DNA of 37,200 bases, taken from contig CAMJEC010000002.1 in the NCBI GenBank assembly GCA_946404585.1, positions 1 through 37,200 on the forward strand. Reading direction: 5' to 3'. Origin of the DNA: an uncultured Bacillales bacterium. Its GTDB lineage: Bacteria > Bacillota_I > Bacilli_A > RFN20 > CAG-826. Below are positions 13,601 through 30,052 of the stretch, piece by piece. The notes below the pieces were generated by a model. The model made no database searches and was not told the origin of the DNA. It saw only the letters and a list, made by a program, of their open reading frames with translations. Every line of letters begins with the position of its first letter. Position 1 is the first letter of the stretch. The translations under genes and the position numbers were made by a program.

Positions 13601-13601
13601 T

Positions 13602-13632
13602 AAAAAAGTCGTGGGTTATTGCCCATCACGAC
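13602..13632 (-). terminator. Rho-independent terminator overlapping the stop codon of 13616..14575
   Basis: On the minus strand: GTCGTG (13632..13627) ... CACGAC (13613..13608), followed by TTTTTT (13607..13602). Confidence 0.55.
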
Positions 13633-14575
13633 CTTCTGGATAATCACCAGATATTATTTTGGATTCTAGTCTTTGAACCGTTCTTTTTGGCACTTCATAA
13701 AAACTATAGTAAGTGACTGTTTCACCTTTGTGATGAGGGAAGGCTCTTTCATATGTATATTTCACTATTAAGTAATTACGCTCTACGAGTTCACCATCTA
13801 GGACTCTATAATGTGGCTCAATATCCACACCCACCATGAGGTTTTCATCAATTTCGTATGAGAATAAGAGTGATCCCATATTCGAATCATCACTATCTTC
13901 TTTGAAGTAACTAGTCCATTTCCTACATTCTTCAAATGTTAAATCATCAAGGAAAGAGCGCTTATCATCTATATAACCTGATCCTTGATAAGAGATAGTA
14001 GGATTAGCTTCGACTGTCTTGGCATAATAGATAGCACCATCCATTGTCCCGCTCATTTTAGCAGTTTCGGTTTCTTGTACTTCGCTTTCATAAACATCAA
14101 GCATTCTATCTTTAGCGGCATTAATGATTGTTTCGCCAGCATATGGCTGCAAGTCATAATATAAGATTTGTGTATACACACCACTAGCAAAGTTAAGATC
14201 CGCACGAGTCATGATACAGTCTTCATAGATACGAAATATTACAACTTCCGCTCTTGGCTTTGGATTACGTAAGAAATACCAAAGATATTCCTCGTTATCG
14301 TTAGTATGATTAGCTTTCTTTCTAGGAGTAGCGGATGTCACATTACTTTTAATTGTATTGATAATATAGTTATCCCAGTCAACAGCGTCATTACCATCTA
14401 AATCAACAGGTCTTTTGCTTTCTGGATAGATGTTATACATATTGCTACGGGTATTTTCCGCGCCATCTAACCATTGTTCGAGAGTAATATCTTCTGGTTT
14501 ATAGGCATTGCCTTTAGCGCAGCCCGCTAATAATGAAGCGGCTAAGACGGGTATCAATAATAATGCTTTCTTCAT
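13616..14575 (-). CDS. Lipoprotein, paralogue family member 2
   Basis: MKKALLLIPVLAASLLAGC lipobox, AGAGGAA SD. It lies 13 nt downstream of member 3, so it is probably co-transcribed. Confidence 0.8.
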   Translation of the reverse strand: MKKALLLIPVLAASLLAGCAKGNAYKPEDITLEQWLDGAENTRSNMYNIYPESKRPVDLDGNDAVDWDNYIINTIKSNVTSATPRKKANHTNDNEEYLWYFLRNPKPRAEVVIFRIYEDCIMTRADLNFASGVYTQILYYDLQPYAGETIINAAKDRMLDVYESEVQETETAKMSGTMDGAIYYAKTVEANPTISYQGSGYIDDKRSFLDDLTFEECRKWTSYFKEDSDDSNMGSLLFSYEIDENLMVGVDIEPHYRVLDGELVERNYLIVKYTYERAFPHHKGETVTYYSFYEVPKRTVQRLESKIISGDYPEGRDGQ

Positions 14576-14588
14576 ATATTATTCCTCT

Positions 14589-15515
14589 CTATTCAGTCAC
14601 TAAAGAATCTAACACTTGTTTTAATTCACCGAACGCTTCCTTACTAATAAGATAAGTAGTACGAACACCATAGTGACCTTCTCGGTAGTAAGAATCCTTT
14701 ATGAATTTTGGTCTATAGTGATAGCAAACCTGAATAACGTTATAGTCATAGCCGTTACTATTAGTGATGACATCTTCTTTGCCAAGCCATAACGCTAAAT
14801 GTTCGTTAAGTTGATAAGTGAACACTGTATTATCGTCATTTAGACTAGGAACATATTCCTGGTTTGGGCTTTTTATACACTCTTTTTCTTTCAAAACATT
14901 TAAGAAAGAACGATTCTCATCTTCAATATTGTTATTGTTATATGTCATCGCAAAAGAAGTGGCTTCTTCTGCTTTTGCTAAGAAGTTTTCTATTGTGGCT
15001 TCTTGTTTTGCTAATGCGGTTTCTTGCTTATAGGTATCTTTGATTTCTTTAGCTCTTCCTACTGCAGCATCAATAATTTTCTTGCCTACTTCTACATCGT
15101 ATGCGTAATAACATCTTTGTTGATAATATTTCTTGCCCACAAAGAAATCGGTAAATGTCATGATATGATTTTCATATACATAAAGAAAGCAGCCATCTGC
15201 ATCATCTTGTTTATTTTGCATTAAATACACAAAGAATATTTCTCCAGTTTCTTCTATTCTTTTATTTTTATGTGTACAGTTACCAAGAGCGTTTTCTTTG
15301 ATAGTTTTAAGGACATAGTTTTCATAGTCCCATTCATCAGCGTCCATATCATATGATTTGAAACCTTTATAGTATAAGTTGCACCAGCCGTTCGCTAGTT
15401 TTTCATCTTCAGCATTTTCTAACCATCTATCAAGAGTGATCGTTTTTGGTTGATTTATATCACAACCAGTCATAAGAGATAGAGCAATAATAGGCACTAA
15501 TAACAATTTTTTCAT
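14589..15515 (-). CDS. Lipoprotein, paralogue family member 3
   Basis: MKKLLLVPIIALSLMTGC lipobox, TAGGAG SD. The 5' coding sequence is close to member 1 at the nucleotide level (TTATTAGTGCCT). Confidence 0.8.
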   Translation of the reverse strand: MKKLLLVPIIALSLMTGCDINQPKTITLDRWLENAEDEKLANGWCNLYYKGFKSYDMDADEWDYENYVLKTIKENALGNCTHKNKRIEETGEIFFVYLMQNKQDDADGCFLYVYENHIMTFTDFFVGKKYYQQRCYYAYDVEVGKKIIDAAVGRAKEIKDTYKQETALAKQEATIENFLAKAEEATSFAMTYNNNNIEDENRSFLNVLKEKECIKSPNQEYVPSLNDDNTVFTYQLNEHLALWLGKEDVITNSNGYDYNVIQVCYHYRPKFIKDSYYREGHYGVRTTYLISKEAFGELKQVLDSLVTE

Positions 15516-15877: not shown

Positions 15878-18562
15878 ATGAAAAATAATTTCATTACAAA
15901 AATCATCGGCGCAACGTTGGCTTTCGCTATGATGATCGGTGGTGCTGTTGGCATTAATTCTTTTAGGGAAGCAAAAGAAGTCAATGCTGACCCAGGAGAT
16001 GAGAGTGTTTATAAGGAAGCCAGGTTTGGTGCCGACTATAACAACAATGGTGTATCTTCTTATACAGATACATGGACAGCAACTTATAATGGATTCACTG
16101 TCTCTCTATCAAATTTCAACAACTACAACAATGGTTGGGCTTATGTAAAGTGTGGTAGAAAGAACAACGCTTCTGTCGCGACAATCAGCACATCAGCAGC
16201 AATAGATCAGCCGATAACTAAAGTGGATGTAACAATTGATTCCATCACAGCCGGTAAGGTAAATTCTATTAAACTTTTTAAATCTGCTGATGGCTCTAGT
16301 TGGGCGGAGGTTGGATCTTATGCCAAAGAATCTGGAACAAAAAGTGTTACATTAGCGAACCCTTCTACCGATCTTTATTACAAACTCGAATTCGATTGTG
16401 CGAGTAATACCGCCAATGGCTTTGTGCAAGTATCAAAAGTAGAGTACTATTACATTGAGCCTACTGTTGGAACAAGTTATACAGTGACTTTTAATTCTTT
16501 AGGCGGCGATAGCGTTAATGATAGAGTTGTTTCCGAAGGCGCAACAATTGCATCCTTACCAACCGCGGAAAAAGCAAAAAACACAACAACTCAAACAAAA
16601 TATGAATTCGAAGGATGGTACATTTTATCAAATTCAGATAATCCAAATAATCCTTCGTTCGAAGGTGCAACAAAATTCACTTCTTCTACACAAGTTAATA
16701 GCGACTTAACGCTTTATGCAAAATATACTGAAACACACTACAATGTAGTAACTTTTGATACAGACGGAGGCTCTGAAGTTGAAAGTGTCGAAGTTGATAA
16801 TGGTGGTACTGTTGCCAGACCTGCTAACCCAACAAAGAGTGGTTATCAATTCGATGGTTGGTATACAAACGAAGACGTTGAATATGATTTCAGTTCTACT
16901 ATCACAAACAGAAACTTCACCTTGTACGCAAGATGGACATCAATTGCCATTGAAGAAAATGGTCTATTTGTTAAAGTCACAAGTGCTGAAGATATGATTG
17001 ACGATGGTAAATATTTAATCGTGTACGAAAGTGGAAATGTTGCATTTAATGGCAGTTTAGACACACTTGATGTCGCCTCAAATACAGTTGATGTTGATTA
17101 CGACGGTGAATACATTTTGAAAGATAATAATACAAAAATTGCATATTTCACCATTAACACTACAAACAAAAAAATCATTTCTGCATTTGGACAATTTATC
17201 GGACAAGATACTTATGATAATGGTTTGGACACATCTGTTTCTGGAGGTGACGACAATAACTATAACAACGTTGTCTCATTCGACAATAATGGAAATGCAG
17301 TTATTACCGCAGCAGGAAATACAACTTTGAGATACAATACTGCGTCCAATCAGTTAAGATTTAGATATTACAAGTCTGGTCAAGAAGCAATCCAATTGTA
17401 TAAGTTTGTTAGAACATACACTGTCACATTTGATACTAATGATGGTTCAAATATTGATCCAGTAACTGTTCTTGATGGCAACTTATTAACTCTTCCAAAT
17501 AATCCTACTAAGGCGCCAGATGCCAATTATAACTATAGTTTTGTTGGTTGGTATACCGATGAAGAATTAATGGATCCATTTGTTTCTTCAACGCCTATCA
17601 CGGAAGATATCACTCTTTATGCAAAATATTCTGCAGAAGAAATTGACAACCCAGATGCATATTTGGGTTCAGCAACTTCTGTTGCGTCACTAAGTGCTAG
17701 AGAAACATCTGCCTATGGTAGCCCTAAAACAATTTCAAAAACAGTTGCCCAAGTATCTGGCACAACAACTAATGGTACGCAAGTTGCTGAACTTGTTTTG
17801 AATTCTTCGATCACTGTTTCAGTTAATGCTAACGGAAACAATGGTAAGGTTTATGCCAACGGCGCAGAATGGCGCGTTTATCAAGGTGATAATGCCCAAA
17901 TTAACGTTGCTGCAGCAAATAGTGGAAAAATTAGTTCAATCACATTTGAATTTGATGTTGATAAAGGCGGCGTTTTGAAATACGGCGATGAAACCGTTAA
18001 CAGTGGAGAAGCAGTAGAAATAAATAATTTATCCAGTGCGATTTTCACAGTAGGAAATTCAACAGCTGCTACAAATGGCCAAGTTAAAATTACTGCGATT
18101 AGCGTAACTTATTCTGAAAATGAAGTTACTGTCGATAACGTTTCTATGAAACTTGGATTGACTATTCCAGCAGAACAATGGGGACAAATTGCTGCAAAAT
18201 GGACCATTTCCAACTATGGTATAATGTTATTCAGAACTACTGAAGAAAGATTAGGATTAGTTTCTACTGTTGAAGAATACTTTACTGCAGACCCAGCAAA
18301 TGTTACTATCGTTGATAATGGAGATGGTACAGCTCCAGATCCTGATGGCGATGAATATAGATTCTCAGTGGTGATTAATTTTAGAACTACTGCAGCCTTT
18401 GCTAGATATTACTGTGCCGCACCATTTATTGTTATTAATGGCACATATTATTTCTTAGATGAAATGAGAGTATCAGTTAATTCATTAGCTAGTGATTATC
18501 TTGCAAATGGTGGATCAAACTTATCAACTCAAGCTTTGACATATTTGTCAACAACGCACTAA
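15878..18562 (+). CDS. Large secreted protein with three Listeria-Bacteroides (InlB B / Flg_new) repeats and a C-terminal domain shared with 18868..21945
   Basis: GGAG lies 6 nt upstream of the ATG. Signal peptide (...KEVNA/DP). Repeats end in GWY...TLYAKYT, GWYT...TLYARWT and GWYT...TLYAKYS. The C-terminal ~150 aa align with the C-terminus of the next large protein (TIPxxxW, YGxM, VEE, YCAAxxIVxNxTYYFLxE, SLA). Confidence 0.85.
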   Translation: MKNNFITKIIGATLAFAMMIGGAVGINSFREAKEVNADPGDESVYKEARFGADYNNNGVSSYTDTWTATYNGFTVSLSNFNNYNNGWAYVKCGRKNNASVATISTSAAIDQPITKVDVTIDSITAGKVNSIKLFKSADGSSWAEVGSYAKESGTKSVTLANPSTDLYYKLEFDCASNTANGFVQVSKVEYYYIEPTVGTSYTVTFNSLGGDSVNDRVVSEGATIASLPTAEKAKNTTTQTKYEFEGWYILSNSDNPNNPSFEGATKFTSSTQVNSDLTLYAKYTETHYNVVTFDTDGGSEVESVEVDNGGTVARPANPTKSGYQFDGWYTNEDVEYDFSSTITNRNFTLYARWTSIAIEENGLFVKVTSAEDMIDDGKYLIVYESGNVAFNGSLDTLDVASNTVDVDYDGEYILKDNNTKIAYFTINTTNKKIISAFGQFIGQDTYDNGLDTSVSGGDDNNYNNVVSFDNNGNAVITAAGNTTLRYNTASNQLRFRYYKSGQEAIQLYKFVRTYTVTFDTNDGSNIDPVTVLDGNLLTLPNNPTKAPDANYNYSFVGWYTDEELMDPFVSSTPITEDITLYAKYSAEEIDNPDAYLGSATSVASLSARETSAYGSPKTISKTVAQVSGTTTNGTQVAELVLNSSITVSVNANGNNGKVYANGAEWRVYQGDNAQINVAAANSGKISSITFEFDVDKGGVLKYGDETVNSGEAVEINNLSSAIFTVGNSTAATNGQVKITAISVTYSENEVTVDNVSMKLGLTIPAEQWGQIAAKWTISNYGIMLFRTTEERLGLVSTVEEYFTADPANVTIVDNGDGTAPDPDGDEYRFSVVINFRTTAAFARYYCAAPFIVINGTYYFLDEMRVSVNSLASDYLANGGSNLSTQALTYLSTTH

Positions 18563-18574
18563 GGAGAGAAGATT

Positions 18575-18697
18575 ATGAATGACGAAAAGAAATTTTTAAA
18601 ACCAGAATTAGAAATTATTTCATTTTCTAATGAAGATGTTATTCTTACAAGCAATGTTCTCGACGAAATTGATGAGGATAATCCAGTCGAGCATTAA
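18575..18697 (+). CDS. Unannotated 40-aa ORF, leader-like N-terminus (candidate RiPP precursor or partner peptide)
   Basis: Not in the ORF track (<60 aa). GGAGAG (18563..18568) lies 6 nt before the ATG. Product MNDEKKFLKPELEIISFSNEDVILTSNVLDEIDEDNPVEH, stop TAA at 18695..18697, followed by a terminator. The N-terminal 26 aa are homologous to 21951..22076. Confidence 0.6.
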   Translation: MNDEKKFLKPELEIISFSNEDVILTSNVLDEIDEDNPVEH

Positions 18698-18728: not shown

Positions 18729-18752
18729 GGCGGATTTTATTCCGCCTTTTTT
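18729..18752 (+). terminator. Rho-independent terminator
   Basis: GGCGGA (18729..18734) / TCCGCC (18741..18746), 6-nt loop, TTTTTT tail. Confidence 0.8.
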
Positions 18753-18867
18753 AGTTTCAATAAAACGCATATTTGTATTGATGGCTACAAACAAAAACAA
18801 ATATTTGCTGGAAAAACGCCAATAATAGTTATATTATTAAGTGCTCACTACTGTGACAAAATAAATT

Positions 18868-21800
18868 ATGAAAATGAATAAAAAAACAATTGCAATAACA
18901 TCTTTATTTACTGTTTTTGCTTTAGGTGTTGGCTTAATTATTAATGCCAGTGTTCCACATGCTGAAGTTGACGCGAGCAATTATTCAGTTAGATCTGTTC
19001 CAACAACTATAAATTTAAATGATGCCAGTGAATCCACAATTAGGGGTTATTATGCTTCTTTGAACAATCTTTCAGAAAATGAGAGAAAAGGCACTAATTT
19101 ATTGAAGAATTTAAAACCAATTCTTAAGAATGGCCAAAAGTATCTTTCATATGGAGGCAGCGCTACAACAGCTGTTTGGCAAGCATATGAAATCGTTGAT
19201 AGAGACTGGAATAAGTCTCCTGCATCTTCTATAAGTGGATATAATGCTCAAACAAATACAATTACTGGCTATGTCTACGGAAAAAGTAATTCTAATGTGG
19301 GTAGCAATCCATATATTCATGCTTTATATGTAAATCGAAACGTCGAAAATCAACAAAGAGCATGGGGAAACCACAATCAAGTTCAATGGGGAATTAACCA
19401 AGAACACCTTTGGGCTAAATCATGCGGCTTCCAAGACGAGTCTCCAGCAGCTGGTGCTAGAGGCGATTTAATGCATCTTTGGGCGGGAAATGGCAGAGTT
19501 AATGGCGATACTCATAGCAATTATTATTATGGATATGTTGACACAACAAAAACTTATAACAATGCTGGAAGTTACGCTTCAACATTATCAGGAAATTTGC
19601 GTGGTTACTCTAAAACACTTGGTGGATCAGTAACAGTATTTGAACCACAAGATTCTGATAAAGGCGATATTGCTAGAGCTATTTTCTATATGGCCGCTAG
19701 ATATAACTATTTATCTGGTAGCGATTCAGATGGAATTGATGCTGGCAACCCAAACCTTGAAATCGTTAACGATGTAACTTCTTGGCAAAATAATGGTTAT
19801 CAATCAACAACAACTAGAACTGGTAAGATGGGTATCATCCAAGATTTGCTTAAATGGAATGAAATTGATCCACCAGATGAATTCGAAATTCACAGAAACA
19901 ATCTTTGCTACAACAATTTTACTAAAAATAGAAACCCATTTATTGATTATCCAAGTTGGGCTAATGCTATTTGGGGAACAGTAGATGCAAATGGCAATTA
20001 CAACTCAACACCTGCTACTTTTGCCACTCCATCAACTGATGCAATTGGATCATCCACAGTTAATCCTGTGTTTAGTATCTCTAATACACAATTGAATTTA
20101 GAAGTTGGTGAAACTGCTACTCTTTCTGCCACAAACGCAGATGGTAACATTACTTGGTCAGTAGACAATAGTGCTATTGCAAGTTTAGATAAAACAACAA
20201 CCGTAAATAACGGAAATGTTACTATCACTGCATTAAGTGCTGGCTCTACAACAATTACCGCTACTAATGGTAATCAAAGTTTAACTTGTAATTTAACTGT
20301 TTCCGAACAGACAATGGAAATTTCTTTAGATAGAAGTACCGCTAGTATTGAAGTTGGTCAAACCATAACTTTAGTAGCAACCACAACTCCAAACAATGCA
20401 CAAGTTACATGGCTATCTAGTGATGAAGACGTGGCCATAGTATCAAATGGTGTTATAACTGGTTTATCTGCTGGTACTACTGTTATTACCGCTAAATTGT
20501 CAGACAGCGTGAAGGCTCAATGCACTGTTACCGTGACAAGTAATGGTGGAAGTGGCGAACAATCATCTATAGAAATCGCTACAAGTATTTCAGCTGGTGA
20601 TACAGTCTACTTAACAGCCAATTCTGCTGATATGCAATTTAATGGCATTTCTTCAACAAGCACTAAGTATGGTTTAGGTGTTTCGTTTGAAGATGAACCA
20701 GATACAGACACATATGCTCTTGAAGTTGCTACTGGCGCAAACAATGGAACGTATGCTTTCAAAATCAAAGAAGGAAATAATGCTAATAAATATCTCTCTT
20801 GGACATCAGGAAATAGTTTAACAACCGGCAACAGTATAGATACTAATAGTTCTTGGTATGTTGATTTTGATAATGCTGGGAATGTAACTATTAAAAACTC
20901 CGCAGATCAAACTAGAGTAATTTGGTGGAATGTTAGTGATCCAAGGTTTGCTTGCTATACCGGCAAGAGCAATGGTAGTAGCTACTATTTTACTCAATTA
21001 TGGAAAGTCGCTGCTCCAATCGAAGAAGAATATGTTGAAGACTATCTTGATTCGGTTGAATCACTCATGGCTATTGGTGGAAATGAAACATCTACTGGTT
21101 CAACACAAAACGGACCAAAAACAATCGATTTCTCCACTCTTGGATTAACCAGTGGTGCCCAATACACCGAACCATTCGATGGTGATGGTTTCACTGTTAC
21201 ATTCGCTGGTGGTGGCAACGATGGAAAGTATTATGATACTGGCACTGGCATAAGAACCTACGGCGATGGAACAATCACAATTCATTCTGAGGAAACGATA
21301 ACAGGAATCACAATGACTTGGAGTGGAACCAACAAGCCTGAAAATGGTAATGTAGTCGATGTTGGTACATATGACGCATCTACAGGTGTATGGACGGGTT
21401 CTGAGAACACCATTGTCTTCACAAGACCTAGTGGAAGCGGGCACTGGAGATTGCAAGCAGTTACTGTGACATTTGATAATTCTCAAGTACCAACTGTGAC
21501 AGTAGATCATGCATATATGGAATTTGGTATTACTATTCCAGTTTCCGATTGGGATGCCATCAACGCCAATGAAGATTGGGAAATTGCCGATTATGGTGTA
21601 ATGTTTGTTAAGAAAACAACATTAGAAGATACATATCATGCATCATCTGTTGAGGAAGCATATTACAATGGTGATTATCTTAAAGATGTTCATAAAGGTA
21701 ATGGTGAAAATCCATATAGTATTCTCGACATGTATATATTCACCGCGAAATTAAGTATTAATAACGAATCAAATTATGATGTTGTTTATTGTGCTGCTTC

Positions 21801-21945
21801 GTATATAGTAGTAAATGATACTTATTACTTCTTAAAGGAAGAAAGAGAATCAATCCGTTCTTTAGCCGCTCAATCTATTGGTCAAGGAACATCTGAATTA
21901 TCTGATGATGCATTAACCATCTTAAAAGGCAATTATGGAGGATAA
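18868..21945 (+). CDS. Large secreted endonuclease I-family nuclease fused to two Big_2 domains and a shared C-terminal region
   Basis: Signal peptide. Endonuclease_1 motifs NQEHLWAKS, DLMHLWAGNGRVNGDTHSN, EPQDSDKGDIARAIFYMAARY, NRNPFIDYPSWANAIWG. Two Big_2 repeats (LEVGETATLSA...ITALSAGSTTITA; IEVGQTITLVA...ITGLSAGTTVITA). The C-terminus is homologous to 15878..18562. There is no obvious SD, so the start (18868 or 18874) is uncertain. Confidence 0.85.
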   Translation: MKMNKKTIAITSLFTVFALGVGLIINASVPHAEVDASNYSVRSVPTTINLNDASESTIRGYYASLNNLSENERKGTNLLKNLKPILKNGQKYLSYGGSATTAVWQAYEIVDRDWNKSPASSISGYNAQTNTITGYVYGKSNSNVGSNPYIHALYVNRNVENQQRAWGNHNQVQWGINQEHLWAKSCGFQDESPAAGARGDLMHLWAGNGRVNGDTHSNYYYGYVDTTKTYNNAGSYASTLSGNLRGYSKTLGGSVTVFEPQDSDKGDIARAIFYMAARYNYLSGSDSDGIDAGNPNLEIVNDVTSWQNNGYQSTTTRTGKMGIIQDLLKWNEIDPPDEFEIHRNNLCYNNFTKNRNPFIDYPSWANAIWGTVDANGNYNSTPATFATPSTDAIGSSTVNPVFSISNTQLNLEVGETATLSATNADGNITWSVDNSAIASLDKTTTVNNGNVTITALSAGSTTITATNGNQSLTCNLTVSEQTMEISLDRSTASIEVGQTITLVATTTPNNAQVTWLSSDEDVAIVSNGVITGLSAGTTVITAKLSDSVKAQCTVTVTSNGGSGEQSSIEIATSISAGDTVYLTANSADMQFNGISSTSTKYGLGVSFEDEPDTDTYALEVATGANNGTYAFKIKEGNNANKYLSWTSGNSLTTGNSIDTNSSWYVDFDNAGNVTIKNSADQTRVIWWNVSDPRFACYTGKSNGSSYYFTQLWKVAAPIEEEYVEDYLDSVESLMAIGGNETSTGSTQNGPKTIDFSTLGLTSGAQYTEPFDGDGFTVTFAGGGNDGKYYDTGTGIRTYGDGTITIHSEETITGITMTWSGTNKPENGNVVDVGTYDASTGVWTGSENTIVFTRPSGSGHWRLQAVTVTFDNSQVPTVTVDHAYMEFGITIPVSDWDAINANEDWEIADYGVMFVKKTTLEDTYHASSVEEAYYNGDYLKDVHKGNGENPYSILDMYIFTAKLSINNESNYDVVYCAASYIVVNDTYYFLKEERESIRSLAAQSIGQGTSELSDDALTILKGNYGG

Positions 21946-21950
21946 CAATC

Positions 21951-22076
21951 ATGGATGAAAAAAGATTTATAAAACCAGAAGCTGACGTGGTTGCATTCAC
22001 ATTTGAAGATATCATCACAGCAAGCGGCGATAATCCTTGGGTTATTGGTGGTGCTACTGATGAAGAAACCCCATAA
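21951..22076 (+). CDS. Unannotated 41-aa ORF, leader-like N-terminus (candidate RiPP precursor)
   Basis: Not in the ORF track. GGAGG (21937..21941) lies 9 nt before the ATG. Product MDEKRFIKPEADVVAFTFEDIITASGDNPWVIGGATDEETP, stop at 22074..22076, terminator follows. It lies 72 nt upstream of the kinase/PqqD operon. Confidence 0.6.
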   Translation: MDEKRFIKPEADVVAFTFEDIITASGDNPWVIGGATDEETP

Positions 22077-22095
22077 GAATGATTAAATAACAAAG

Positions 22096-22118
22096 ACGGA
22101 GTCAACTACTCCGTTTTT
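22096..22118 (+). terminator. Rho-independent terminator
   Basis: ACGGAGT (22096..22102) / ACTCCGT (22108..22114), 5-nt loop, TTTTT tail. Confidence 0.8.
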
Positions 22119-22148
22119 ATTTATAAAAAATACAAGTATAATAAGCAC

Positions 22149-22865
22149 ATGGTTAACTTTAAAATCGAAATTGCTGATATTGTCGTCGAGATTAATGCTT
22201 TTAATGAATCTACTTTAAAGTACTGTAGTGATTTTCTATCTGATAAAGAATCTAACTATGTCATTACTATGACTAAAGAAGATTTAGAAAACGAAAAGCA
22301 CATTAATGAAGACGGTAAAGTATACGCGAATGAAGAGATATCAGCGTTATATCGTAAGATCGCAGATATATTCGTAGAGGAAGATATCTTAGTGGTGCAT
22401 GGTTCATCCTTTAAAGTGGATACCTCCGCTTTTATTGTGACCGCGAGAAGTGGCGTGGGTAAATCCACTCATGTTAATTTATTAAAAGAGTATCTTAAAG
22501 ATAGATTTACTTATATTAATGACGATAAACCTTTATTAAAGATTAAAGGTGATAAGTTAACTCTCTATTCTTCTCCGTGGAACGGAAAAGAAAGAAGAGG
22601 TAATAATATAAATGCACCTTTAAGAAGTATTATCTTCCTTAATAGGGGCATCACTAATACATATAAGAAACTTGATAATAAAGAAGTCTATTTTAGATTA
22701 TTAAGTCAAATATATTTACCAAGAGATAAAACTAAAAGAGAAAAAGCCTTAAAGTTAATTGATATATTATTAAAGAGTGTTTCTTTCTATGAAATAAATG
22801 TTAATACTGATATATCAAGCGCAGAGATGACTAGTGAAAGGATTATTAATTATGAAATTAAATGA
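22149..22865 (+). CDS. HPr-kinase-like P-loop protein (RiPP-associated HprK-type kinase candidate)
   Basis: VVHGSSFKVDTSAFIVTARSGVGKSTH matches the HprK C-terminal-domain pattern (H-x-S/A ... G-x-SG-x-GKS). TATAAT (22137..22142) lies 6 nt before the ATG and there is no SD. Confidence 0.55.
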   Translation: MVNFKIEIADIVVEINAFNESTLKYCSDFLSDKESNYVITMTKEDLENEKHINEDGKVYANEEISALYRKIADIFVEEDILVVHGSSFKVDTSAFIVTARSGVGKSTHVNLLKEYLKDRFTYINDDKPLLKIKGDKLTLYSSPWNGKERRGNNINAPLRSIIFLNRGITNTYKKLDNKEVYFRLLSQIYLPRDKTKREKALKLIDILLKSVSFYEINVNTDISSAEMTSERIINYEIK

Positions 22866-23124
22866 GAACTTTTTAATCCATCAATCTGATAATGGTGAAA
22901 TCCTTATCCCAGTAGGGGATGAGACTAAAAGATTCCATGGTGTTGTTAAACTTAATGATACTGGTAGTGAAATTGTTCACTTATTAGAAAATAATGACTT
23001 ATCGCTAGAAGATGTTCTTAATCACTTTTATCAAGAATGCCCTAATGATGATAAAGAAGTAATTAAAAAGGGAGTAAGTGAGTTTATTAATAAGCTCGTC
23101 GAGATCAATGCCATCATCTTATAA
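22852..23124 (+). CDS. PqqD-family protein (RiPP recognition element, RRE)
   Basis: 90 aa. The pattern ...LIPVGDETKRFHGVVKLNDTGSEIVHLLENNDLSLEDVLNHFYQECPNDDKEVIKKGVSEFINKLVEINAI fits the PqqD winged-helix layout. ATG 22852 is preferred (AAAGGA upstream) over GTG 22834. It overlaps the kinase gene by 14 nt. Confidence 0.7.
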   Translation: MKLNENFLIHQSDNGEILIPVGDETKRFHGVVKLNDTGSEIVHLLENNDLSLEDVLNHFYQECPNDDKEVIKKGVSEFINKLVEINAIIL

Positions 23125-23539
23125 ATTTGAAGATGTATTAAATAAAGACGGAGAACTAATATTCACTAATGTTGGTTACTCTATGTATCCTCTAATAAGA
23201 CAAAGAGAGGATGTTTTAAGAATAGTTAAATCTGATAACTATAAGAAAGGTGATATTGTCTTATATAAATCTGAAATAGACCATTATGTTTTGCATAGAA
23301 TTCTTAAAATTAAGAAAGATAAAGTGATACTCGCAGGAGATTATAACTACTTTAAAGATAAACCTATCGCAAAAGATATGATTTTAGGCGTTTTAAGGAC
23401 TATTACTAAGAAGGACGGTAAAATAATCGACCTATCTAAAGATAAGAAGGCTAGAAGGTTCTTTTACACTAATTTCTTTTATATCAAAGCATTCTTCCAA
23501 ATAATTGGTAAGATATTACATATCAGGAAAGTAAAATAA
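23108..23539 (+). CDS. S24/S26-family serine peptidase (signal-peptidase/LexA-like fold)
   Basis: GYSMYP (nucleophile Ser), KKGDIVLY, HRILKIKK (candidate general-base Lys), ILAGDYN. ATG 23108 overlaps the PqqD gene by 17 nt; 23078 is an alternative start. Confidence 0.65.
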   Translation: MPSSYKFEDVLNKDGELIFTNVGYSMYPLIRQREDVLRIVKSDNYKKGDIVLYKSEIDHYVLHRILKIKKDKVILAGDYNYFKDKPIAKDMILGVLRTITKKDGKIIDLSKDKKARRFFYTNFFYIKAFFQIIGKILHIRKVK

Positions 23540-23611
23540 TATAACATCGGCAAAAAACAAAAAACTTTATATAACTATTGTAAATATTGCCGAATATAGT
23601 ATTATTAATAT

Positions 23612-24514
23612 ATGAATAAATTCATATCCATTAAAGAAGCATCAATCAAGTGGAACATTTCGGAAAGAAGTGTTCGTAATTACTGCGCTCATGGAAGAGT
23701 TCCTGGTGCTGTTTTTAATAATGGTCGTTGGCTCATACCAGAAGAGGCTAAAAAACCATTAAGACTTAATGAGAAGAATAATAAGAATCATCTTTTGGAA
23801 AGACTAAGAGAAGAAAAGAAACATCAAATCAGTGGAGGAATATATCACAAGCTTCAAATTGATTTAACTTATAATTCAAACCACATTGAAGGCAGTGAAC
23901 TAACTCACGATCAAACCAGGTATATTTTTGAAACAAGAACCATTGGTTTAGAAAATAAAAACTCATCAGTAAGAGTGGATGATGTTGTTGAGACGATTAA
24001 TCATTTTTCTGCGATTGATAGGGTGATTGATTTTGCTAACTATGAACTTAGTGAGCCGTTTATCAAAGAACTCCATAAAATATTAAAAACAGGAACATCT
24101 GATTCCAGACTTCCATGGTTTGCCGTTGGTGAATATAAAAAAAGAGCAAATGAAGTGGGTGATATGGCCACTACATCTCCACAACTTGTTGGAAATGAAA
24201 TGAAAAAGCTTATTAGTGATTATAATCAAAAAGAGAACCATTCTTTTGAAGAGATAGTGGAATTTCATGTCAAATTTGAAAGAATTCATCCATTCCAAGA
24301 CGGTAATGGTAGAGTGGGTCGTTTGATTATTCTTAAAGAGTGTTTGAAAAACAACATTGTTCCTTTTGTCATCCTTGATAGCAAAAAGATGTTTTATTAT
24401 CGTGGGCTTAAAAACTGGGATCAGCAACGTGGTTGGCTATTAGATACTTGTTTAGATGGGCAAGATACAGTAAAAGCGTACCTAGATTATTTTGGAATAG
24501 TGTATCGTAATTAA
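23612..24514 (+). CDS. Fic-domain protein with N-terminal HTH (putative AMPylase / nucleotidyl- or phosphoryl-transferase)
   Basis: Intact Fic motif HPFQDGNGRVGR. N-terminal excisionase/MerR-like HTH (ISIKEASIKWNISERSVRNYCAHGRVPGA). Confidence 0.85.
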   Translation: MNKFISIKEASIKWNISERSVRNYCAHGRVPGAVFNNGRWLIPEEAKKPLRLNEKNNKNHLLERLREEKKHQISGGIYHKLQIDLTYNSNHIEGSELTHDQTRYIFETRTIGLENKNSSVRVDDVVETINHFSAIDRVIDFANYELSEPFIKELHKILKTGTSDSRLPWFAVGEYKKRANEVGDMATTSPQLVGNEMKKLISDYNQKENHSFEEIVEFHVKFERIHPFQDGNGRVGRLIILKECLKNNIVPFVILDSKKMFYYRGLKNWDQQRGWLLDTCLDGQDTVKAYLDYFGIVYRN

Positions 24515-24524
24515 GGAAGCAAAG

Positions 24525-26165
24525 ATGAGAAACAAAGAAACACTAAAGTTTATTACTAATAATATTAAAGGCAGTAAGAAGAAAGTTCTTATTCTTTCAA
24601 TAGTCCAAACCTTATTAGGTGTTTTAACAGTGGCCTTCTCTTTTATGCTTAAGCCTGTGATAACCGCTCTTGAAGATAAGAACAATGATTTATTAATTAG
24701 AAATGTCATTATTCTTGCTTCTATCGCGGTTGTTCTTATCATCTTACAAATCTTTTATCGCTTATATTACGAAGTCAGTTATATCGATATTGAAAATAGA
24801 CTTAAAAATAACTTATTTAAAACAATCTTAAATAAAGATTATCAAGAAATTAAGAATACCCATGATGAAGAATGGATTCATAGATTAACTAGTGATACCG
24901 CAGTGGTGGCTAATTCTATCCTATCCATCTTACCTTCATTATGCAGAATGGTGGTGCAATTGGTCTTAGCGCTCGCCGCTATCATTGTTTTATTCCCAGT
25001 CTTTGGTTTATCCTTATTACCATTTATCTTATTAGTTATTTTAATCACTTATTTTATGAGGAAACGCTTGAAAGCGTATCATCATTTAACGCAAGAAAAA
25101 GATGGCAGGGCTAAAGTGTTCTTATCTGAATCTCTTCAAGGTTTAGCGATTGTCCATTCATTCGTAAAGGAAGATGTCTTTACTAAGAAGAATGAACAAA
25201 ACTTAGAAGAATATAAGAAAGCGAGATTAAAAAGAAATACATTTAATGTTCTTTGTTCTGTCGGCTTTATCGTGGTCTATTATGCTTTCTATATTCTCGC
25301 GATTATTTTCTGTGGGCAAAAGATTATTAACGGTGATATGACTATTGGTTTCTTAAGTGCGATCGTCGCGTTACTATCTCAATTAACAGGTCCATTAGGT
25401 AATATTACTTCTATTATTCCTAAGTACTACTCCTTATTAGCGAGTGGTGAACGTTTAAGAATGGAAAATAATGTAGACTTCACTTATTTATCTAAGGATG
25501 AAATTAATAACTTCTATAATAATGAATTCAAATCATTATCCATTAATAACGTTTCTTATTCATATCTAGATAAATATGGTAATAAGGTAGAAGCCTTAAA
25601 GAACTTTAATTTAAAGATTAATAAAAATGAGAAGATCTTAATCAAAGGTCATTCTGGTGGTGGTAAGTCCACTTTATTTAAGTTAATGCTTTCTTTATTA
25701 ACTCCTGAAAGTGGTGAACTATTAATTAATGAAGAACCACTTAATAAAAGATATGAGAAACTATTTGCCTATGTTCCTCAAGATAACTTATTAATGGAAG
25801 GCACAATTAAGGAAGTAATTACTTTATTTAGCGATAATCCTAATAATGAATTATTTAATAAAGCACTAGATATTAGTGAATCATCATCTTTTGTTAATGC
25901 TTTAGCGAATAAAGGTGATACATATCTCAATGAAAAAGGTAGTGGCCTCTCCTTAGGGGAAATGGAAAGAATCGCAATCGCTAGAGCCATCTATAGTGAT
26001 TCTCCAATACTTCTTTTAGATGAATGCAGTGCTTCTTTAGACTCTGATACTGAAGCTAAAGTGATGTCTAATATCTTAAATATGCAAAATAAGACAATTA
26101 TCTTAATCTCACATCATAAATATGATGAGATACTATTTGATAAAGTCATCGATTTAGGTGAATAA
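24525..26165 (+). CDS. ABC exporter, fused TMD-NBD half-transporter
   Basis: Six predicted TM helices. Walker A GHSGGGKST, signature LSLGE, Walker B ILLLDE. No N-terminal C39 peptidase domain. AAGGAAG SD. Confidence 0.9.
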   Translation: MRNKETLKFITNNIKGSKKKVLILSIVQTLLGVLTVAFSFMLKPVITALEDKNNDLLIRNVIILASIAVVLIILQIFYRLYYEVSYIDIENRLKNNLFKTILNKDYQEIKNTHDEEWIHRLTSDTAVVANSILSILPSLCRMVVQLVLALAAIIVLFPVFGLSLLPFILLVILITYFMRKRLKAYHHLTQEKDGRAKVFLSESLQGLAIVHSFVKEDVFTKKNEQNLEEYKKARLKRNTFNVLCSVGFIVVYYAFYILAIIFCGQKIINGDMTIGFLSAIVALLSQLTGPLGNITSIIPKYYSLLASGERLRMENNVDFTYLSKDEINNFYNNEFKSLSINNVSYSYLDKYGNKVEALKNFNLKINKNEKILIKGHSGGGKSTLFKLMLSLLTPESGELLINEEPLNKRYEKLFAYVPQDNLLMEGTIKEVITLFSDNPNNELFNKALDISESSSFVNALANKGDTYLNEKGSGLSLGEMERIAIARAIYSDSPILLLDECSASLDSDTEAKVMSNILNMQNKTIILISHHKYDEILFDKVIDLGE

Positions 26166-27302
26166 ATGGGTAAAGAAACATATATCAAATATCTAAAAGA
26201 CTATCTACATCTATTCTCCCTTTATCTAAATAAAAAGGAAGAACCTTCTTTTAAGATTAATGAAAGTAACTTTAATATTTTTCTTAATCTATCTAAGAAG
26301 CATTCATTGACCGCTTTATTTTATAAGGTGGTTAAGGACACCAAAGTGGATATCAAAGAAGAATATCTAAAAGTATTAGAACAATATTATTTTTCTAATG
26401 TTCAGAAGCATGTCTTATTTGATAAAGAAAGAAAAGAACTGTTTGAATATTGTAATAAAAACAATATCATCCATCTTCCACTTAAAGGCATTATTTTAAA
26501 ACATTATTATCCTGACCCATACACTAGAGAATTCGCCGATAACGATATCTATTTCGGAGGTAACGATGAACTAATTAAAAAGTTCTTCGTTGATAGGGGT
26601 TATGAAGTAGAGCTATATCGGAAAAGTAATCATGACGTGTATTTAAAAAAGCCATGTTTGAACTTTGAAATGCATCGAGCCTTATTTGGGGAAACTGGTG
26701 ATAATGAAAAGGTTGTTAAATATTTTAAACATCCAAACATTAGATTAGTTAACCCATTAGCGATGGAAGCCTATTTACCACTAGATGATTTCTACGTCTA
26801 TTTCACCGCACATTCTTATAAGCATTTCCATATCGCAGGATGCGGACTTAGAACTCTCGTTGACTATTATGTTTTCTTAAAGAAAAACAAAGAAGATGAA
26901 TTACTAGATTTTAAATATATTAATAAACAACTAGAAAAGATGGATCTAGTGGATTTCTCTAATCAAATATCCACTTTAGCGCTTAAAGTCTTTGATGAAC
27001 AAGAACTATCTAATGAAGAAATGGAAACACTGTTATTTATCGCTAGCAGTGGGACATATGGAACCTTAGAAAATAGAGTAAATAAAGGTGTTAAAGAAAA
27101 AGGTAAAACTAGATATTTCTTTTCTAGAATATTCCCTCCATATAGATTCTATAAATCCGCTTATCCATGGGCATATAAGGTACCTATATTAATTCCTATT
27201 GCCTGGTTATGCAGATTATTTAGAATCCTATTTAAAAATCCAAAAAGAGCGACATCTGAATTAAAGATGATATCTAAATCCAAAGAAGAGAAAGATAAGT
27301 AA
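26166..27302 (+). CDS. Uncharacterised nucleotidyltransferase family protein (NTP_transf_5 / PF14907-like)
   Basis: The ATG directly abuts the ABC stop codon (TAAATG). The layout HSLTALFY ... IIHLPLKGIILKHYYPDPYTREFADNDIYF ... LNFEMHRALF matches the PF14907 pattern (KG..l...Y.dp..R...D.D, then veLH). Confidence 0.7.
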   Translation: MGKETYIKYLKDYLHLFSLYLNKKEEPSFKINESNFNIFLNLSKKHSLTALFYKVVKDTKVDIKEEYLKVLEQYYFSNVQKHVLFDKERKELFEYCNKNNIIHLPLKGIILKHYYPDPYTREFADNDIYFGGNDELIKKFFVDRGYEVELYRKSNHDVYLKKPCLNFEMHRALFGETGDNEKVVKYFKHPNIRLVNPLAMEAYLPLDDFYVYFTAHSYKHFHIAGCGLRTLVDYYVFLKKNKEDELLDFKYINKQLEKMDLVDFSNQISTLALKVFDEQELSNEEMETLLFIASSGTYGTLENRVNKGVKEKGKTRYFFSRIFPPYRFYKSAYPWAYKVPILIPIAWLCRLFRILFKNPKRATSELKMISKSKEEKDK

Positions 27303-27361: not shown

Positions 27362-30052
27362 ATGAAAAAGAATACCAGTCGTAAAAACGAAGATATTAAA
27401 AGATTTAATCCTACCGCCGAAAGTGGCTTAGATAGTGCCTCAGTGGCCTATATGCAAAGTGTGGGCAAAGTAAATATTGCTAAAAGCCCAACGAATAAGT
27501 CATATACCAAAATCGTTTTAGGTAATATCTTTACCTTCTTTAATATTTTGATGTTCGCTATTGCGGGCTTACTTCTTTTACTAGTGGGTCCTAAAGTAGT
27601 GACTAACTTAATGTTTTTAGGCATTATTGTTTGTAACTTACTGATAGGCACTATTCAGGAATGCAAGAGTAAACATACAATTGAAAAACTTAAGTTATTA
27701 AACGATAGCAAGATTAAAGTAAGACGTGATGGTAAAGAAGTAGAACTCTTACCAACTGAAATAGTTTTAGATGATGTTGTTATCTTAACAGCAGGGGATC
27801 AAATACCCGCTGACTGTATTGTCTTAGATGAACAAATCTTAGAAGTTAATGAATCATTATTAACTGGTGAATCAGTACCAGTAAAGAAGACTAAAGGTGA
27901 TACAGTATTTGCTGGCTCCTTTGTCGTGGCTGGTTCTTTAGCGGTCCGTGTGGATAAAGTTGGTAATGATACATATATCTCCTCAATTGAAAATAAGGCT
28001 AAAGTATCTAAACAACCTAAATCTAGATTGATGATTGCCATCTCTAAGATTATTAGAAATATGACACTTATTGCTATCCCATTAGCGGTATTTGTCGCGA
28101 TTTATGAATTCGTATATGGCTTACTTAATAACACTGAAGGATTAAGTATTCTTCCAACAACCTGGGGTCAAAAGACTATTTTCTCTGAAGCCACCTTCTA
28201 TAGTGGTGTCACTATTGCCTATATGATTCCATGTGGTATGGCGTTACTCGCCAGTGTCGCGATGGCCACAGGTGTTGTTAAACTCGCACAAAATAAGACT
28301 TTAGCCCAAGACTTATATTCTGTTGAATCTTTATCTAGAGTTAATACTCTTTGCTTAGATAAGACAGGGACATTGACCGATGGTTCAATGACCCTTGAAG
28401 AAACTATTATCTTAGATAAGAGTTATAACGAAGAATCTTTAGATAGATTAATGTCTAGTTACTTAGACGCTTTTAATGAGGCTAACCAAACATCAACCGC
28501 TTTATTAAATAAGTTTGGTAAACTCGTGGAACGTATTGATGACTATGGTCAACGTAATAGTTCTAATGCCTTTAGAAAGAAATTTAAGAATTTAGATCAA
28601 CTTAAAGTTAACGATAGAATCCATTTCTCCTCTGCGAGAAAATATTCCGCAGTGGAATTTGAAGGTTTAGGTTGGTTTGTGATGGGCGCTCCTGAATTCA
28701 TCACTAAAGACCAAGAAATCTTAAATAAAGTAAATGAATACGCGCAAAATGGTTTACGTGTTATCGTACTTGCTAAAGTAAACGGTGTAGTCATTAAAGA
28801 TAAACCAGTTCCAAGTGATGTCACCTTAGTAGCGATGCATATCTTAAGCGACACGATTAGACCAGAAGTTAAAGATACAATGTTATGGTTTAGAGAAAAC
28901 GATGTTGATATTAAAGTTATCTCTGGTGATAACATCGGTACTGTTAGTTATATTGCTAAACAATCAGGTATCGCTAATTGGGATAAGATCGTGGATATGT
29001 CTAAAGTGACTGAACAAGATAACTTAGAAGAACTAGTTTTAAATAACGCAATATTCGGTAGAGTTACTCCTGACCAAAAAGCGGAAATTATCGCGATCTT
29101 AAAGAAGAACAACCGTATCGTTGGTGTCACAGGTGATGGTTTAAATGACTTATTAGCCTTTAAGCAAGCCGATTGCTCTATTGCTTTAGCAAATGGTGCG
29201 GCCGCTACTAAAAACGTCGCAAATCTTGTTTTATTAGATTCTAACTTCTCTAATATGAAGGAAGCTGTTTTCCAAGGTAGACGTGTTGTTAATAATATTC
29301 AAAGATCTTCATCCTTATTCGTGATGAAGGATTACTTATGGTTCTTTATTACCTTATTACCAATGACGATTGGTTTACCACATATGATTCAACCAACAGT
29401 TATGTCTTTGGTTAATATCTTCATTACTGGTATTGCCTCTTTATTCGTGGCTTTAGAACCTGATAGAACTAGAGTGACTGGTAACTTCTATAAGAATGTT
29501 ACTAAGAGGGCGATATTATCTGGCTTCTATATGTTTATACCGGTTGCTATATGTCTCCTATATGTCTTATTTAGCCAAGTGATTAGAACTCAAACATTTG
29601 ATGTTAAATCATTAGCTACAGTATTTGATATAAACACACATGAAATTATTAGTATTGGTTGGATTCCTACAATGGCCTTATGTGTCACTATTTCTGGCTT
29701 TATTATCTTCTTTAAGAACTGTCGTCCATTTACGACATTTAGAAAGTTCTTATATATTATTACCTTAGTGGTGGTGTTATTTATTTTATGGTTAGCACCT
29801 GAATTCTTCATTGTCAGTGGTACTGAAATGGTGAATGAAGTAGGTGGTTTTCTTAAAATCTTCCCATATATCTTTAGCCATATTGTTCCTAACTTAACAT
29901 TATCCTTATTTAAGACAATGACCTTAGAACAAATCATCTTTGTTGGTGTCCATGCTTTAGCAGCGGTTCCACTCTATTTATTAAATGAAAAGATAGGTGG
30001 AAAATTCCTAGATTTAACTTTATTCGCAAAACGCGAGTATAAGGATGAGTAG
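27362..30052 (+). CDS. Cation-transporting P-type ATPase (HAD-IC, P2-like)
   Basis: LTGESVPV, phosphorylation site CLDKTGTLTDG, VTGDGLNDLLAFKQADCSIAL, ten predicted TM helices. Confidence 0.9.
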   Translation: MKKNTSRKNEDIKRFNPTAESGLDSASVAYMQSVGKVNIAKSPTNKSYTKIVLGNIFTFFNILMFAIAGLLLLLVGPKVVTNLMFLGIIVCNLLIGTIQECKSKHTIEKLKLLNDSKIKVRRDGKEVELLPTEIVLDDVVILTAGDQIPADCIVLDEQILEVNESLLTGESVPVKKTKGDTVFAGSFVVAGSLAVRVDKVGNDTYISSIENKAKVSKQPKSRLMIAISKIIRNMTLIAIPLAVFVAIYEFVYGLLNNTEGLSILPTTWGQKTIFSEATFYSGVTIAYMIPCGMALLASVAMATGVVKLAQNKTLAQDLYSVESLSRVNTLCLDKTGTLTDGSMTLEETIILDKSYNEESLDRLMSSYLDAFNEANQTSTALLNKFGKLVERIDDYGQRNSSNAFRKKFKNLDQLKVNDRIHFSSARKYSAVEFEGLGWFVMGAPEFITKDQEILNKVNEYAQNGLRVIVLAKVNGVVIKDKPVPSDVTLVAMHILSDTIRPEVKDTMLWFRENDVDIKVISGDNIGTVSYIAKQSGIANWDKIVDMSKVTEQDNLEELVLNNAIFGRVTPDQKAEIIAILKKNNRIVGVTGDGLNDLLAFKQADCSIALANGAAATKNVANLVLLDSNFSNMKEAVFQGRRVVNNIQRSSSLFVMKDYLWFFITLLPMTIGLPHMIQPTVMSLVNIFITGIASLFVALEPDRTRVTGNFYKNVTKRAILSGFYMFIPVAICLLYVLFSQVIRTQTFDVKSLATVFDINTHEIISIGWIPTMALCVTISGFIIFFKNCRPFTTFRKFLYIITLVVVLFILWLAPEFFIVSGTEMVNEVGGFLKIFPYIFSHIVPNLTLSLFKTMTLEQIIFVGVHALAAVPLYLLNEKIGGKFLDLTLFAKREYKDE

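Follow-up and report, generated by a model that had tools for sequence, protein, structure and literature searches.

Gene organization of the locus

A group of six genes at positions 22149-27302 was analyzed as a candidate operon for a peptide made on the ribosome and modified after translation (RiPP), together with two small peptide genes upstream. The genes lie on a 37,200-nt stretch of DNA from an uncultured Bacillales bacterium (contig CAMJEC010000002.1), the whole of which is referred to as the window. A first-pass annotation of the window had described six co-directional genes, and an open reading frame (ORF) check placed all six at the positions given there. The translational overlaps that it had reported were also borne out by the coordinates. 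The stop of the kinase gene (K) at 22865 overlapped the ATG of the RiPP recognition element (RRE) gene (Q) at 22852 by 14 nt, and the stop of Q at 23124 overlapped the ATG of the peptidase gene (S) at 23108 by 17 nt. The stop of the exporter gene (D) at 26165 was directly abutted by the ATG of the nucleotidyltransferase gene (N) at 26166. The start codons at 22852 and 23108 were backed by family alignments. The two precursor genes (18575-18697 and 21951-22076) were missed by the coordinates of that annotation. The features are listed below; names with Lpp refer to the linear polyphosphorylated peptide (LPP) system with which the locus is compared.

18575..18697, + strand: precursor-type peptide gene 1, 40 aa, MNDEKKFLKPELEIISFSNEDVILTSNVLDEIDEDNPVEH; leader hidden Markov model (HMM), E = 9.9e-14
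18729..18753, + strand: intrinsic-terminator-like hairpin, GGCGGA...TCCGCC and then a T-run, 3' of peptide gene 1
21951..22076, + strand: precursor peptide gene 2, 41 aa, MDEKRFIKPEADVVAFTFEDIITASGDNPWVIGGATDEETP; leader HMM, E = 4.6e-15
22096..22124, + strand: hairpin ACGGAGT-CAACT-ACTCCGT and then TTTTTATTTAT, between peptide gene 2 and K, read from the sequence
22149..22865, + strand: K, putative LppK-like P-loop kinase of the HprK/phosphoenolpyruvate carboxykinase (PEPCK) fold, 238 aa; family scans, structure model, motif
22852..23124, + strand: Q, LppB/B1-like discrete RRE of the PqqD family, 90 aa; PF05402 and profile matches
23108..23539, + strand: S, predicted LppS-like leader peptidase of the signal peptidase I (SpI) class, S26 Sec11/SipW type, 143 aa; family invariants and profiles
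23612..24514, + strand: helix-turn-helix (HTH)-Fic protein, 300 aa, with an intact HPFQDGNGRVGR motif; PF02661
24525..26165, + strand: D, LppD-like ATP-binding cassette (ABC) exporter with transmembrane and nucleotide-binding domains (TMD-NBD), 546 aa, MsbA/CydD-like; ABC_membrane and ABC_tran
26166..27302, + strand: N, LppN-like PF14907 nucleotidyltransferase, 378 aa; PF14907, 114 bits

The G+C content across the cluster (22001-27000) was 0.30-0.33, lower than the 0.36-0.38 of the surface-protein genes that immediately precede it; such a drop is compatible with horizontal acquisition of the cluster.

Precursor peptides

In the peptides encoded by the two small genes, an [F/Y]xxP leader is combined with an invariant Ser and with a tail that is short and acidic. 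Peptide 1 carries an FxxPxL leader motif and the family-invariant residue as Ser26; the Shine-Dalgarno (SD) sequence of its gene, AAGGAGAG, was located 12 nt past the stop of an 894-aa Flg_new surface protein gene. Peptide gene 2 has a GGAGGA SD and ends 72 nt upstream of the kinase gene. A database search with the single sequence of peptide 2 returned five homologues with 78-93 % identity, in which the motif was kept. The stem at 22096..22124 was reported by the terminator scan on the minus strand only, and the hairpin is possibly an attenuating terminator.

The distribution of the peptides was followed in 84 loci, of which 80 were taken from reference genomes and three from metagenome places, the last one being the window; many of the contigs were truncated. 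The leader HMM matched 48 ORFs in 33 of these loci, and 45 of the 48 were on the kinase strand. Within 500 bp upstream of K there were 5.2 such ORFs per 10 kb, compared with 0.04-0.11 beyond 5 kb. Tandem peptide arrays were found directly before K, with six copies in locus L049 and five in L015. Conversely, four of six contigs that were retrieved by the peptide carried ScmC-PqqD-S26-(ABC)-PF14907 genes within 8 kb. Because of the enrichment upstream of K, the tandem arrays and the peptide-anchored contigs, it was concluded that the small ORFs most probably encode the precursors of the cluster.

The family consensus was M-K-E-K-Y-E-x-P-E-M-E-[IV]-[IV]-E-F-E-[TA]-E-D-V-I-T-T-S-G. Ser was the sole invariant residue in an alignment of 42 peptides and was kept in 125 of the 125 top database hits, while FE[T/A] was kept in 102 of them (the Clostridia clade). 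The 167 unique tails that follow the invariant Ser had a median length of 14 aa (range 6-37) and a mean net charge of -2.9, and were composed mainly of Gly (21 %), Asp (12 %), Pro (10 %), Glu (9 %) and Asn (7 %). Since 46 of these tails contained no Ser, Thr or Tyr at all, the invariant Ser was the only universal hydroxyl of the family.

An alignment-based profile search matched at least 2461 database clusters. No Pfam domain was recorded for the precursor hits listed, the few named ones among them were called 'hypothetical protein', and NCBIfam held no model for the family. This large precursor family lacks prior informative annotation and is newly delineated here.

Predicted modification, processing and export proteins

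The kinase of the window alone gave no curated Pfam or NCBIfam match, and its single-sequence Pfam, NCBIfam and PDB matches to P-loop proteins (RsgA, AAA) were dismissed as spurious. When 57 diverse relatives were scanned, sub-threshold matches to ScmC (38), HprK_rel_B (27), HprK_rel_A (18), HPr(Ser) kinase (10) and PEP carboxykinase were obtained. The precomputed Pfam family of the kinase homologues was PF27840 ScmC. The AlphaFold2 model built on the family alignment had a pLDDT of 96.4, and its top 50 PDB matches were all HprK/P or ATP-dependent PEPCK, each with a probability of 1.0. By its modeled fold, the kinase is related to HprK. The first-pass reading of an HprK-type P-loop protein was upheld by the model and by the weak family-wide matches; only the spacer of its HGSSF...ARSGVGKST motif had to be corrected from 12 residues to 10.

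The catalytic motif of the kinase consists of H84, A99-x2-G102-x-G104-K105-S106 and D125-D126, thus H-x14-A-x2-GxGKS...DD. It equals the H-x14-[GA]-x2-G-x-G-K-S...D-D motif of the lasso kinase BsfK, which was shown to be essential by mutagenesis (PMC10368454). The nearest kinase match in the reference genomes, from Bacilli bacterium RGIG4434, was 60 % identical. The kinase family comprised 5138 representative clusters at E <= 1e-3, which span the whole ScmC-like family.

The product of 22852..23124, previously called a PqqD-like RRE, matched PqqD PF05402 with 37.5 bits against a cutoff of 23.4, and the assignment stands. The RRE family profile matched PDB entries of TbiB1 (5e-5), TfuB1 (2e-4), PbaB1 (0.014) and LppB (0.09), and hhalign related the protein to LppB with a probability of 79 %.

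The third protein had been described as a serine peptidase of the S24/S26 type. The S26 part of this description was supported and the S24/LexA-like part was not. The invariants over 43 relatives were G-x-S-M-x-P, H-R and G-D, the best solved relatives by profile were human SEC11A and SEC11C, and 41 of the 43 members matched sigpep_I_arch TIGR02228 below its cutoff. These family features place the peptidase among the S26 signal peptidases I of the archaeal/ER (Sec11/SipW) type. Ser25, His63 and Asp84 are the predicted catalytic residues. An N-terminal transmembrane helix was absent, and a hydrophobic/basic tail was present at the C-terminus. The alignment of the family profile with LppS by hhalign had a probability of 98 %, E = 1.9e-13 and 29 % identity, and it placed the window Ser25/His63/Asp84 on S29/H68/D93 of LppS, the residues essential there.

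Three further assignments of the first-pass annotation were confirmed by Pfam matches that, like that of the RRE, exceeded the curated cutoffs. The exporter matched ABC_membrane and ABC_tran in Pfam and MsbA/CydD-like families in NCBIfam, with no C39 peptidase domain found by Pfam; the PF14907-like protein matched NTP_transf_5 with 114 bits; and the Fic protein with its intact motif matched PF02661 with 72 bits. Leader processing of the double-glycine/C39 type was ruled out, since a C39 domain is missing from the exporter and the leader's hydrophobic register is unsuited to it.

Conservation in homologous loci

Most of the 84 loci came from Ruminococcus, Oscillospiraceae, Lachnospiraceae, Erysipelotrichaceae and uncultured Bacilli of the rumen and gut, and a few from Bacteroidales and Synergistaceae; a cultured carrier among them is Ruminococcus flavefaciens Y1 (L009). 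The genes were distributed over the loci as follows.

Kinase: 83 of 84 loci
PqqD-type RRE: 64 of 84
S26 peptidase: 60 of 84
ABC exporter: 41 of 84
PF14907: 37 of 84
Fic: 3 of 84

The commonest gene order was kinase, RRE, peptidase, ABC exporter and PF14907 enzyme (K-Q-S-A-N). A fic gene was found inside the cluster in the window and in its 75 % relative L001 only; the Fic match of L078 lay outside the cluster, and none was found in the 60 % relative L004 or in the Clostridia loci. Standing outside the conserved core, the fic gene represents an insertion between S and D that is specific to the lineage, and a role as core tailoring enzyme was rejected for it, although the earlier annotation had counted it as part of the cluster. 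The P-type ATPase gene further downstream, for which co-transcription had been suggested, was not conserved beside the cluster in L001, L004 or other loci and was likewise dropped from the operon.

Natural fusions were recorded between K and S (P0140, P0177, P0198), K and PqqD (P0164), radical SAM and K (P0224), GT8 and K (P0251), and S and PF14907 (L011:10867-12420). These fusions argue that the kinase, peptidase, RRE, radical SAM, GT8 and PF14907 enzymes work as a physical complex.

Additionally, a Pfam census was made of 117 unlabelled same-strand flanking ORFs from the homologous loci. The sole recurrent family was radical SAM, with eight members; neither an Asn-synthase-like cyclase, a transglutaminase-like B2 protease, YcaO nor LanC recurred. 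None of the scanned ORFs of the window coded for a lasso cyclase, B2, radical SAM, YcaO or LanC protein, in agreement with the absences noted in the first-pass annotation.

Nine loci, eight of them from the genome scan and the ninth being L088, combined the K-Q-S module with a RiPP-type radical SAM/SPASM maturase (L013, L019, L035, L039, L044, L053, L077, L010 and L088). The closest families to the maturase were TIGR04463, CefB and PapB, each with a score under its cutoff. The peptides of most such loci had Cys after the invariant Ser, and the loci look like hybrid thioether and LPP-like clusters that share one leader.

In L088 (ENA LIXU21 scaffold_55) the genes were ordered kinase-rSAM-peptide-PqqD-S26-ABC-PF14907. 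Since the cluster is set between genes for a MobA/MobL relaxase, Toprim, TnpV and a serine recombinase, it was placed on a mobile element, which fits the patchy, horizontally transferred distribution of LPPs as reported in PMC13381572. In another locus, L089 (GCA_026169045.1 JAPFDH010000007.1), three peptide genes were interleaved with K and Q, and the cluster adjoined VanZ and sugar-nucleotide genes (GHMP kinase, NTP_transferase, epimerase and UDP-glucose dehydrogenase). VanZ is present in the domain tables of LPPs, which frequently lie near polysaccharide loci (PMC13381572). At 7683-9942 of L001, proteins of 626 and 125 aa with no Pfam family on record were found between the surface-protein genes and the kinase gene; in the window this position is held by the second peptide gene.

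Comparison with linear polyphosphorylated peptides

LPPs were defined and tested by Popov et al. (Nat Commun 2026) with the lppAKBSDN cluster of Paenibacillus alginolyticus DSM5050, and the family was drawn from 126 mostly Bacillales peptidases, with only about one third of the surveyed set tied to lasso enzymes (PMC13381572). In that system LppK puts one to four phosphates on core Ser3, and LppS, with the catalytic residues S29, H68 and D93, cuts after F(-3)-E(-2)-T(-1) in a reaction that requires the RRE LppB. The phosphates stay on the released core, and deletion of LppN had no effect in the heterologous host (all PMC13381572). The first-pass annotation knew of no characterised RiPP class made up of these genes, a statement that was overtaken by that work. 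The reference sequences used here were taken from Supplementary Data 1 of PMC13381572.

The five core enzymes of LPPs are an HprK-like kinase, a discrete PqqD-type RRE, a SipW-type SpI leader peptidase, an MsbA-like exporter and a PF14907 NTP-transferase. All five were found in the window in the identical order K-B-S-D-N. The kinase, NTP-transferase and MsbA-like exporter each had their counterpart, and the S gene, overlapping the RRE gene, encoded a triad aligned with that of LppS. The precursors resembled LppA in having conserved Phe and Ser residues and, at the N-terminus, an RRE motif of the YxxP type. LPPs require no macrolactam cyclase, and none was encoded in the scanned ORFs of the window or recurred in the homologous loci.

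It was concluded, with a probability of about 80 %, that this RiPP operon is of the LPP type and represents a divergent gut/rumen clade. The analysis showed homologous enzymes with intact catalytic motifs, a gene order that is conserved, and peptides genetically linked to the cluster; the activities of the kinase, peptidase and RRE were demonstrated by others in the homologous Paenibacillus system and would apply to the window by analogy.

Several differences from the published LPPs were also recorded. Tails of the family are acidic, have a median of 14 aa and are rich in Gly, Asp, Pro, Glu and Asn, as compared with the 45-aa basic Gly/Asn-rich core of LppA. The hosts are uncultured gut and rumen Bacilli, Clostridia and Erysipelotrichaceae, with few Bacteroidales and Synergistaceae, whereas those of the published LPPs are mostly Bacillales; the neighbours are large surface-protein genes instead of capsule loci. 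A radical SAM/SPASM enzyme is added in some loci of the clade, and the Fic protein between S and D in the lineage of the window only. The cluster of the window is a divergent gut-bacterial variant of LPPs and not a new class.

A number of observations weighed against this assignment. The published precursor motif YxxPxVLxHQxIxFETxxS / Px9Fx[T/A] was replaced by P-x6-F in the clade of the window, and the window peptides had FTF and FSN where LppA has FET. The RRE showed no similarity to LppB in pairwise BLAST and was nearer by profile to lasso B1 proteins than to LppB. The comparison of the kinase with LppK was made through the fold and the BsfK motif. At about 29 % identity to LppS, the window S probably falls, by profile comparison, outside cluster 1 of the published sequence similarity network (SSN), whose edges to LppS-like proteins are at E <= 1e-23 (PMC13381572). 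A closer match (32 % identity, E = 6e-14) was given by SCH01704.1 of Ruminococcus from SSN cluster 9, which is listed with an 'other' RRE and no LPP precursor (PMC13381572). Further, a recognisable precursor was present in only 33 of the 84 loci, a terminator-like hairpin parts the precursor gene from K, which has no obvious SD, and the invariant Ser lies at Phe+9, as against Phe+5 in LppA.

Proposed mechanism, acceptor serine and cleavage site

We proposed the following sequence of reactions. The substrate would be the small peptide of 21951-22076 and probably also its paralogue of 18575-18697. The PqqD-type RRE (22852-23124) would bind the [F/Y]xxP leader motif and hand the peptide first to the HprK-like kinase (22149-22865), by which a serine, most likely the family-invariant one, would be phosphorylated. 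The RRE would then hand the peptide to the cytoplasm-facing Sec11/SipW-type peptidase homologue (23108-23539) for removal of the leader. The PF14907 enzyme may further decorate the phosphate, as was proposed for PsmN in pseudomycoidin (summarised in PMC7533575), and the short acidic product would be exported by the ABC half-transporter. We infer the role of N in this scheme, as we do any role of Fic. The functional reading of the first-pass annotation, phosphoryl or nucleotidyl transfer with an S24/S26 enzyme as the candidate leader peptidase, was judged essentially right, with an S26 enzyme in place of S24; the chemistry would be phosphoryl, perhaps also nucleotidyl or glycosyl, transfer.

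The distance from the leader Pro to the invariant Ser is 16 residues in both window peptides (P9 to S25 and P10 to S26). A phosphoserine was mapped 16 residues past the leader proline in BsfA (PMC10368454) and 15 residues past the equivalent proline in LppA (PMC13381572). Because of this matching spacing, and because it is the only universal hydroxyl of the family, the invariant Ser (Ser25 or Ser26) is most likely the phospho-acceptor.

The cleavage site was approached in three ways, which gave different positions. Homology to the FET site suggests cleavage after consensus position 17, corresponding to Phe18 of the 41-aa peptide. The spacing suggests cleavage after consensus Ile21 (Ile22 of the 41-aa peptide), by which the Ser would be placed at +3. 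Signal peptidases prefer small residues at -1 and -3, and this rule together with the conservation boundary suggests cleavage after Ser-Gly (Ser25/Gly26). Because the Ser stands at Phe+9 and not at Phe+5, the peptides must deviate from LppA in the position of cleavage or in the register of the acceptor.

Alternative explanations

It was also considered that K-B-S-D-N is a generic chassis for leader recognition, cleavage and export. In this clade phosphorylation would then not occur or would serve only for transient licensing, and the exported product would be an unmodified short acidic peptide (e.g. a signal) or a peptide modified otherwise (e.g. by a radical SAM enzyme). The nine radical SAM/SPASM hybrid loci, with Cys after the invariant Ser in most of their peptides, speak for such a chassis, and if S cuts after the conserved Ser-Gly, the phosphoserine would depart with the leader. 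However, the phosphates of LPPs are kept on the released core, the Pro-Ser spacing matches the retained phosphoserines of LppA and BsfA, and N, the presumed phosphate-decorating enzyme, is conserved in the operon. This explanation was regarded as unlikely, and it fared best among the alternatives.

Far less probable was the explanation that the targets of the enzymes are the large surface proteins encoded nearby or polymers of the cell envelope, and that the small ORFs are unrelated co-transcribed genes. It would account for the at least 14 peptide genes that follow a large secreted or surface protein gene by no more than about 40 nt, for the two of six peptide-anchored contigs without a nearby cluster, and for the frequent position of LPP clusters beside capsular polysaccharide loci (PMC13381572). 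Against it, peptides also occur with no large upstream gene and in the tandem arrays before K (L049, L015), their leader has the RRE-binding YxxP motif, and the homologous LppA is a proven substrate.

The LPP-type assignment was further compared with the phosphorylated lasso peptide clusters (paeninodin/Pade, pseudomycoidin/Psm and Bsf). A kinship to accessory genes of Firmicutes lasso clusters, minus the cyclase and B2, had been pointed out in the first-pass annotation. This kinship holds: the HprK-like kinase, the B1-type PqqD RRE, the PF14907 protein N, the ABC exporter and the YxxPxL leader are common to both, and the first four form the accessory set of Firmicutes lasso clusters (PMC7533575, PMC10368454). 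The phosphorylation of Ser3 by BsfK is RRE-dependent (PMC10368454), and LPP and lasso clusters often share one genome (PMC13381572). In 122 of the 167 tails the residue right after the invariant Ser was Gly. In contrast to the lasso clusters, which encode an Asn-synthetase-like cyclase and a transglutaminase-like B2, the window has an S26 serine peptidase with intact catalytic residues in the B2 position. The core constraint of lasso peptides was not seen in the tails either: Asp or Glu at positions 7-9 was found in 66 of the 122 Gly-starting tails (54 %), as compared with about 51 % expected from the 21 % content of Asp and Glu, and a lasso-type core was ruled out for lack of enrichment. Least probable of all was a decayed or split paeninodin-type lasso cluster, with K, B1, N and D as remnants and with a cyclase and B2 that have disappeared or lie at another site, given that the cyclase-less order K-Q-S-(A)-(N) recurs in about 80 loci of many families, that Asn-synthase-like and transglutaminase-like proteins were not recurrent among the 117 flanking ORFs, that many tails of 6-10 aa are too short for a threaded lasso, and that the homologous loci do not carry the cyclase/B2 pair which, according to the first-pass annotation, would mark a decayed lasso cluster.

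Two other known systems were also compared with the LPP-type locus. The SCM cassette pairs ScmC with a PqqD-like protein. SynChlorMet ScmC (TIGR04249/PF27840) was the most frequent NCBIfam match of the K family (38 of 57 relatives, far below the cutoff), but the ScmE/ScmF radical SAM/SPASM enzymes belong to the definition of the cassette, and no radical SAM gene was found among the scanned ORFs of the window. The SipW/Sec11 signal peptidases and the nickel superoxide dismutase (NiSOD) maturation protease have in common with S the S26 motifs GxSMxP, HR and GDN and the Ser-His-Asp residues. S differs from them in that it has no N-terminal membrane anchor and its predicted substrate has no hydrophobic signal peptide; by homology to LppS, it would act with the RRE on a cytoplasmic leader.

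Association with surface-protein genes

At least 14 precursor genes, both window copies included, were found to begin 1-40 nt past the stop of a gene for a secreted or surface protein of 400-2000 aa. The pairs recorded were:

Window: 15878-18697 and 18868-22076
Other loci: L032, L042, L047, L055, L058, L069, L072, L029, L044, L086 and L090

These surface proteins carried Flg_new, LRR_5, DUF285, Endonuclease_1/Big_2 or transglutaminase domains. Their N-terminal domains were unrelated, and C-terminal domains of about 160-200 aa were common to them in three groups; the two surface proteins of the window were 38 % identical over the last 164 aa.

It was tentatively proposed that the gut/rumen clade is a distinct LPP-like branch, far larger than the published one, in which very short acidic (phospho)peptides are made together with large surface proteins and act at the envelope, and K-B-S-D-N is a portable chassis that recruits radical SAM/SPASM and Fic enzymes. 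The co-production would result from a translational coupling of the peptide genes to the 3' ends of surface-protein genes. The proposal as a whole is doubtful. If it is true, the peptides would act at the envelope, e.g. by binding the shared C-terminal domains of surface proteins or cations, and the chassis would recruit radical SAM/SPASM enzymes and, in the lineage of the window, Fic to diversify the product.

With regard to significance, the window shows an LPP-related system to be widespread in uncultured gut and rumen Firmicutes. The precursor family, with its at least 2461 sequence clusters, yields a simple leader HMM for genome mining, and the invariant Ser at a fixed distance from the RRE-binding proline would allow precise prediction of the phosphorylation site. 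The surface-protein adjacency and the radical SAM hybrids would be new handles on the role of the peptides. What is added here to the description of LPPs is the delineation of the precursor family, the prediction of an acceptor serine and the connection with surface proteins.

Neighbouring genes of the window

Signalling genes abound at 57-8381 of the window. They encode a hybrid histidine kinase (57-1571) that has two receiver domains, GGDEF proteins (2891-3913 and 7290-8381) and, on the minus strand, an HD_5/HD-GYP-like protein (4955-6163). These were followed by CotH (9608-11461) and a SASA esterase (11543-12580). The theme of this upstream neighbourhood is c-di-GMP and the cell surface. 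Three consecutive minus-strand ORFs of 304, 319 and 308 aa at 12626-15515, which had no Pfam match at E <= 0.001, may be paralogues. Downstream of the operon, an ORF for a 1006-aa lipoprotein-like protein with a weak Reprolysin_3 match was found to begin 8 nt ahead of where the P-type ATPase gene stops (30045-30052), and the two genes may be translationally coupled.

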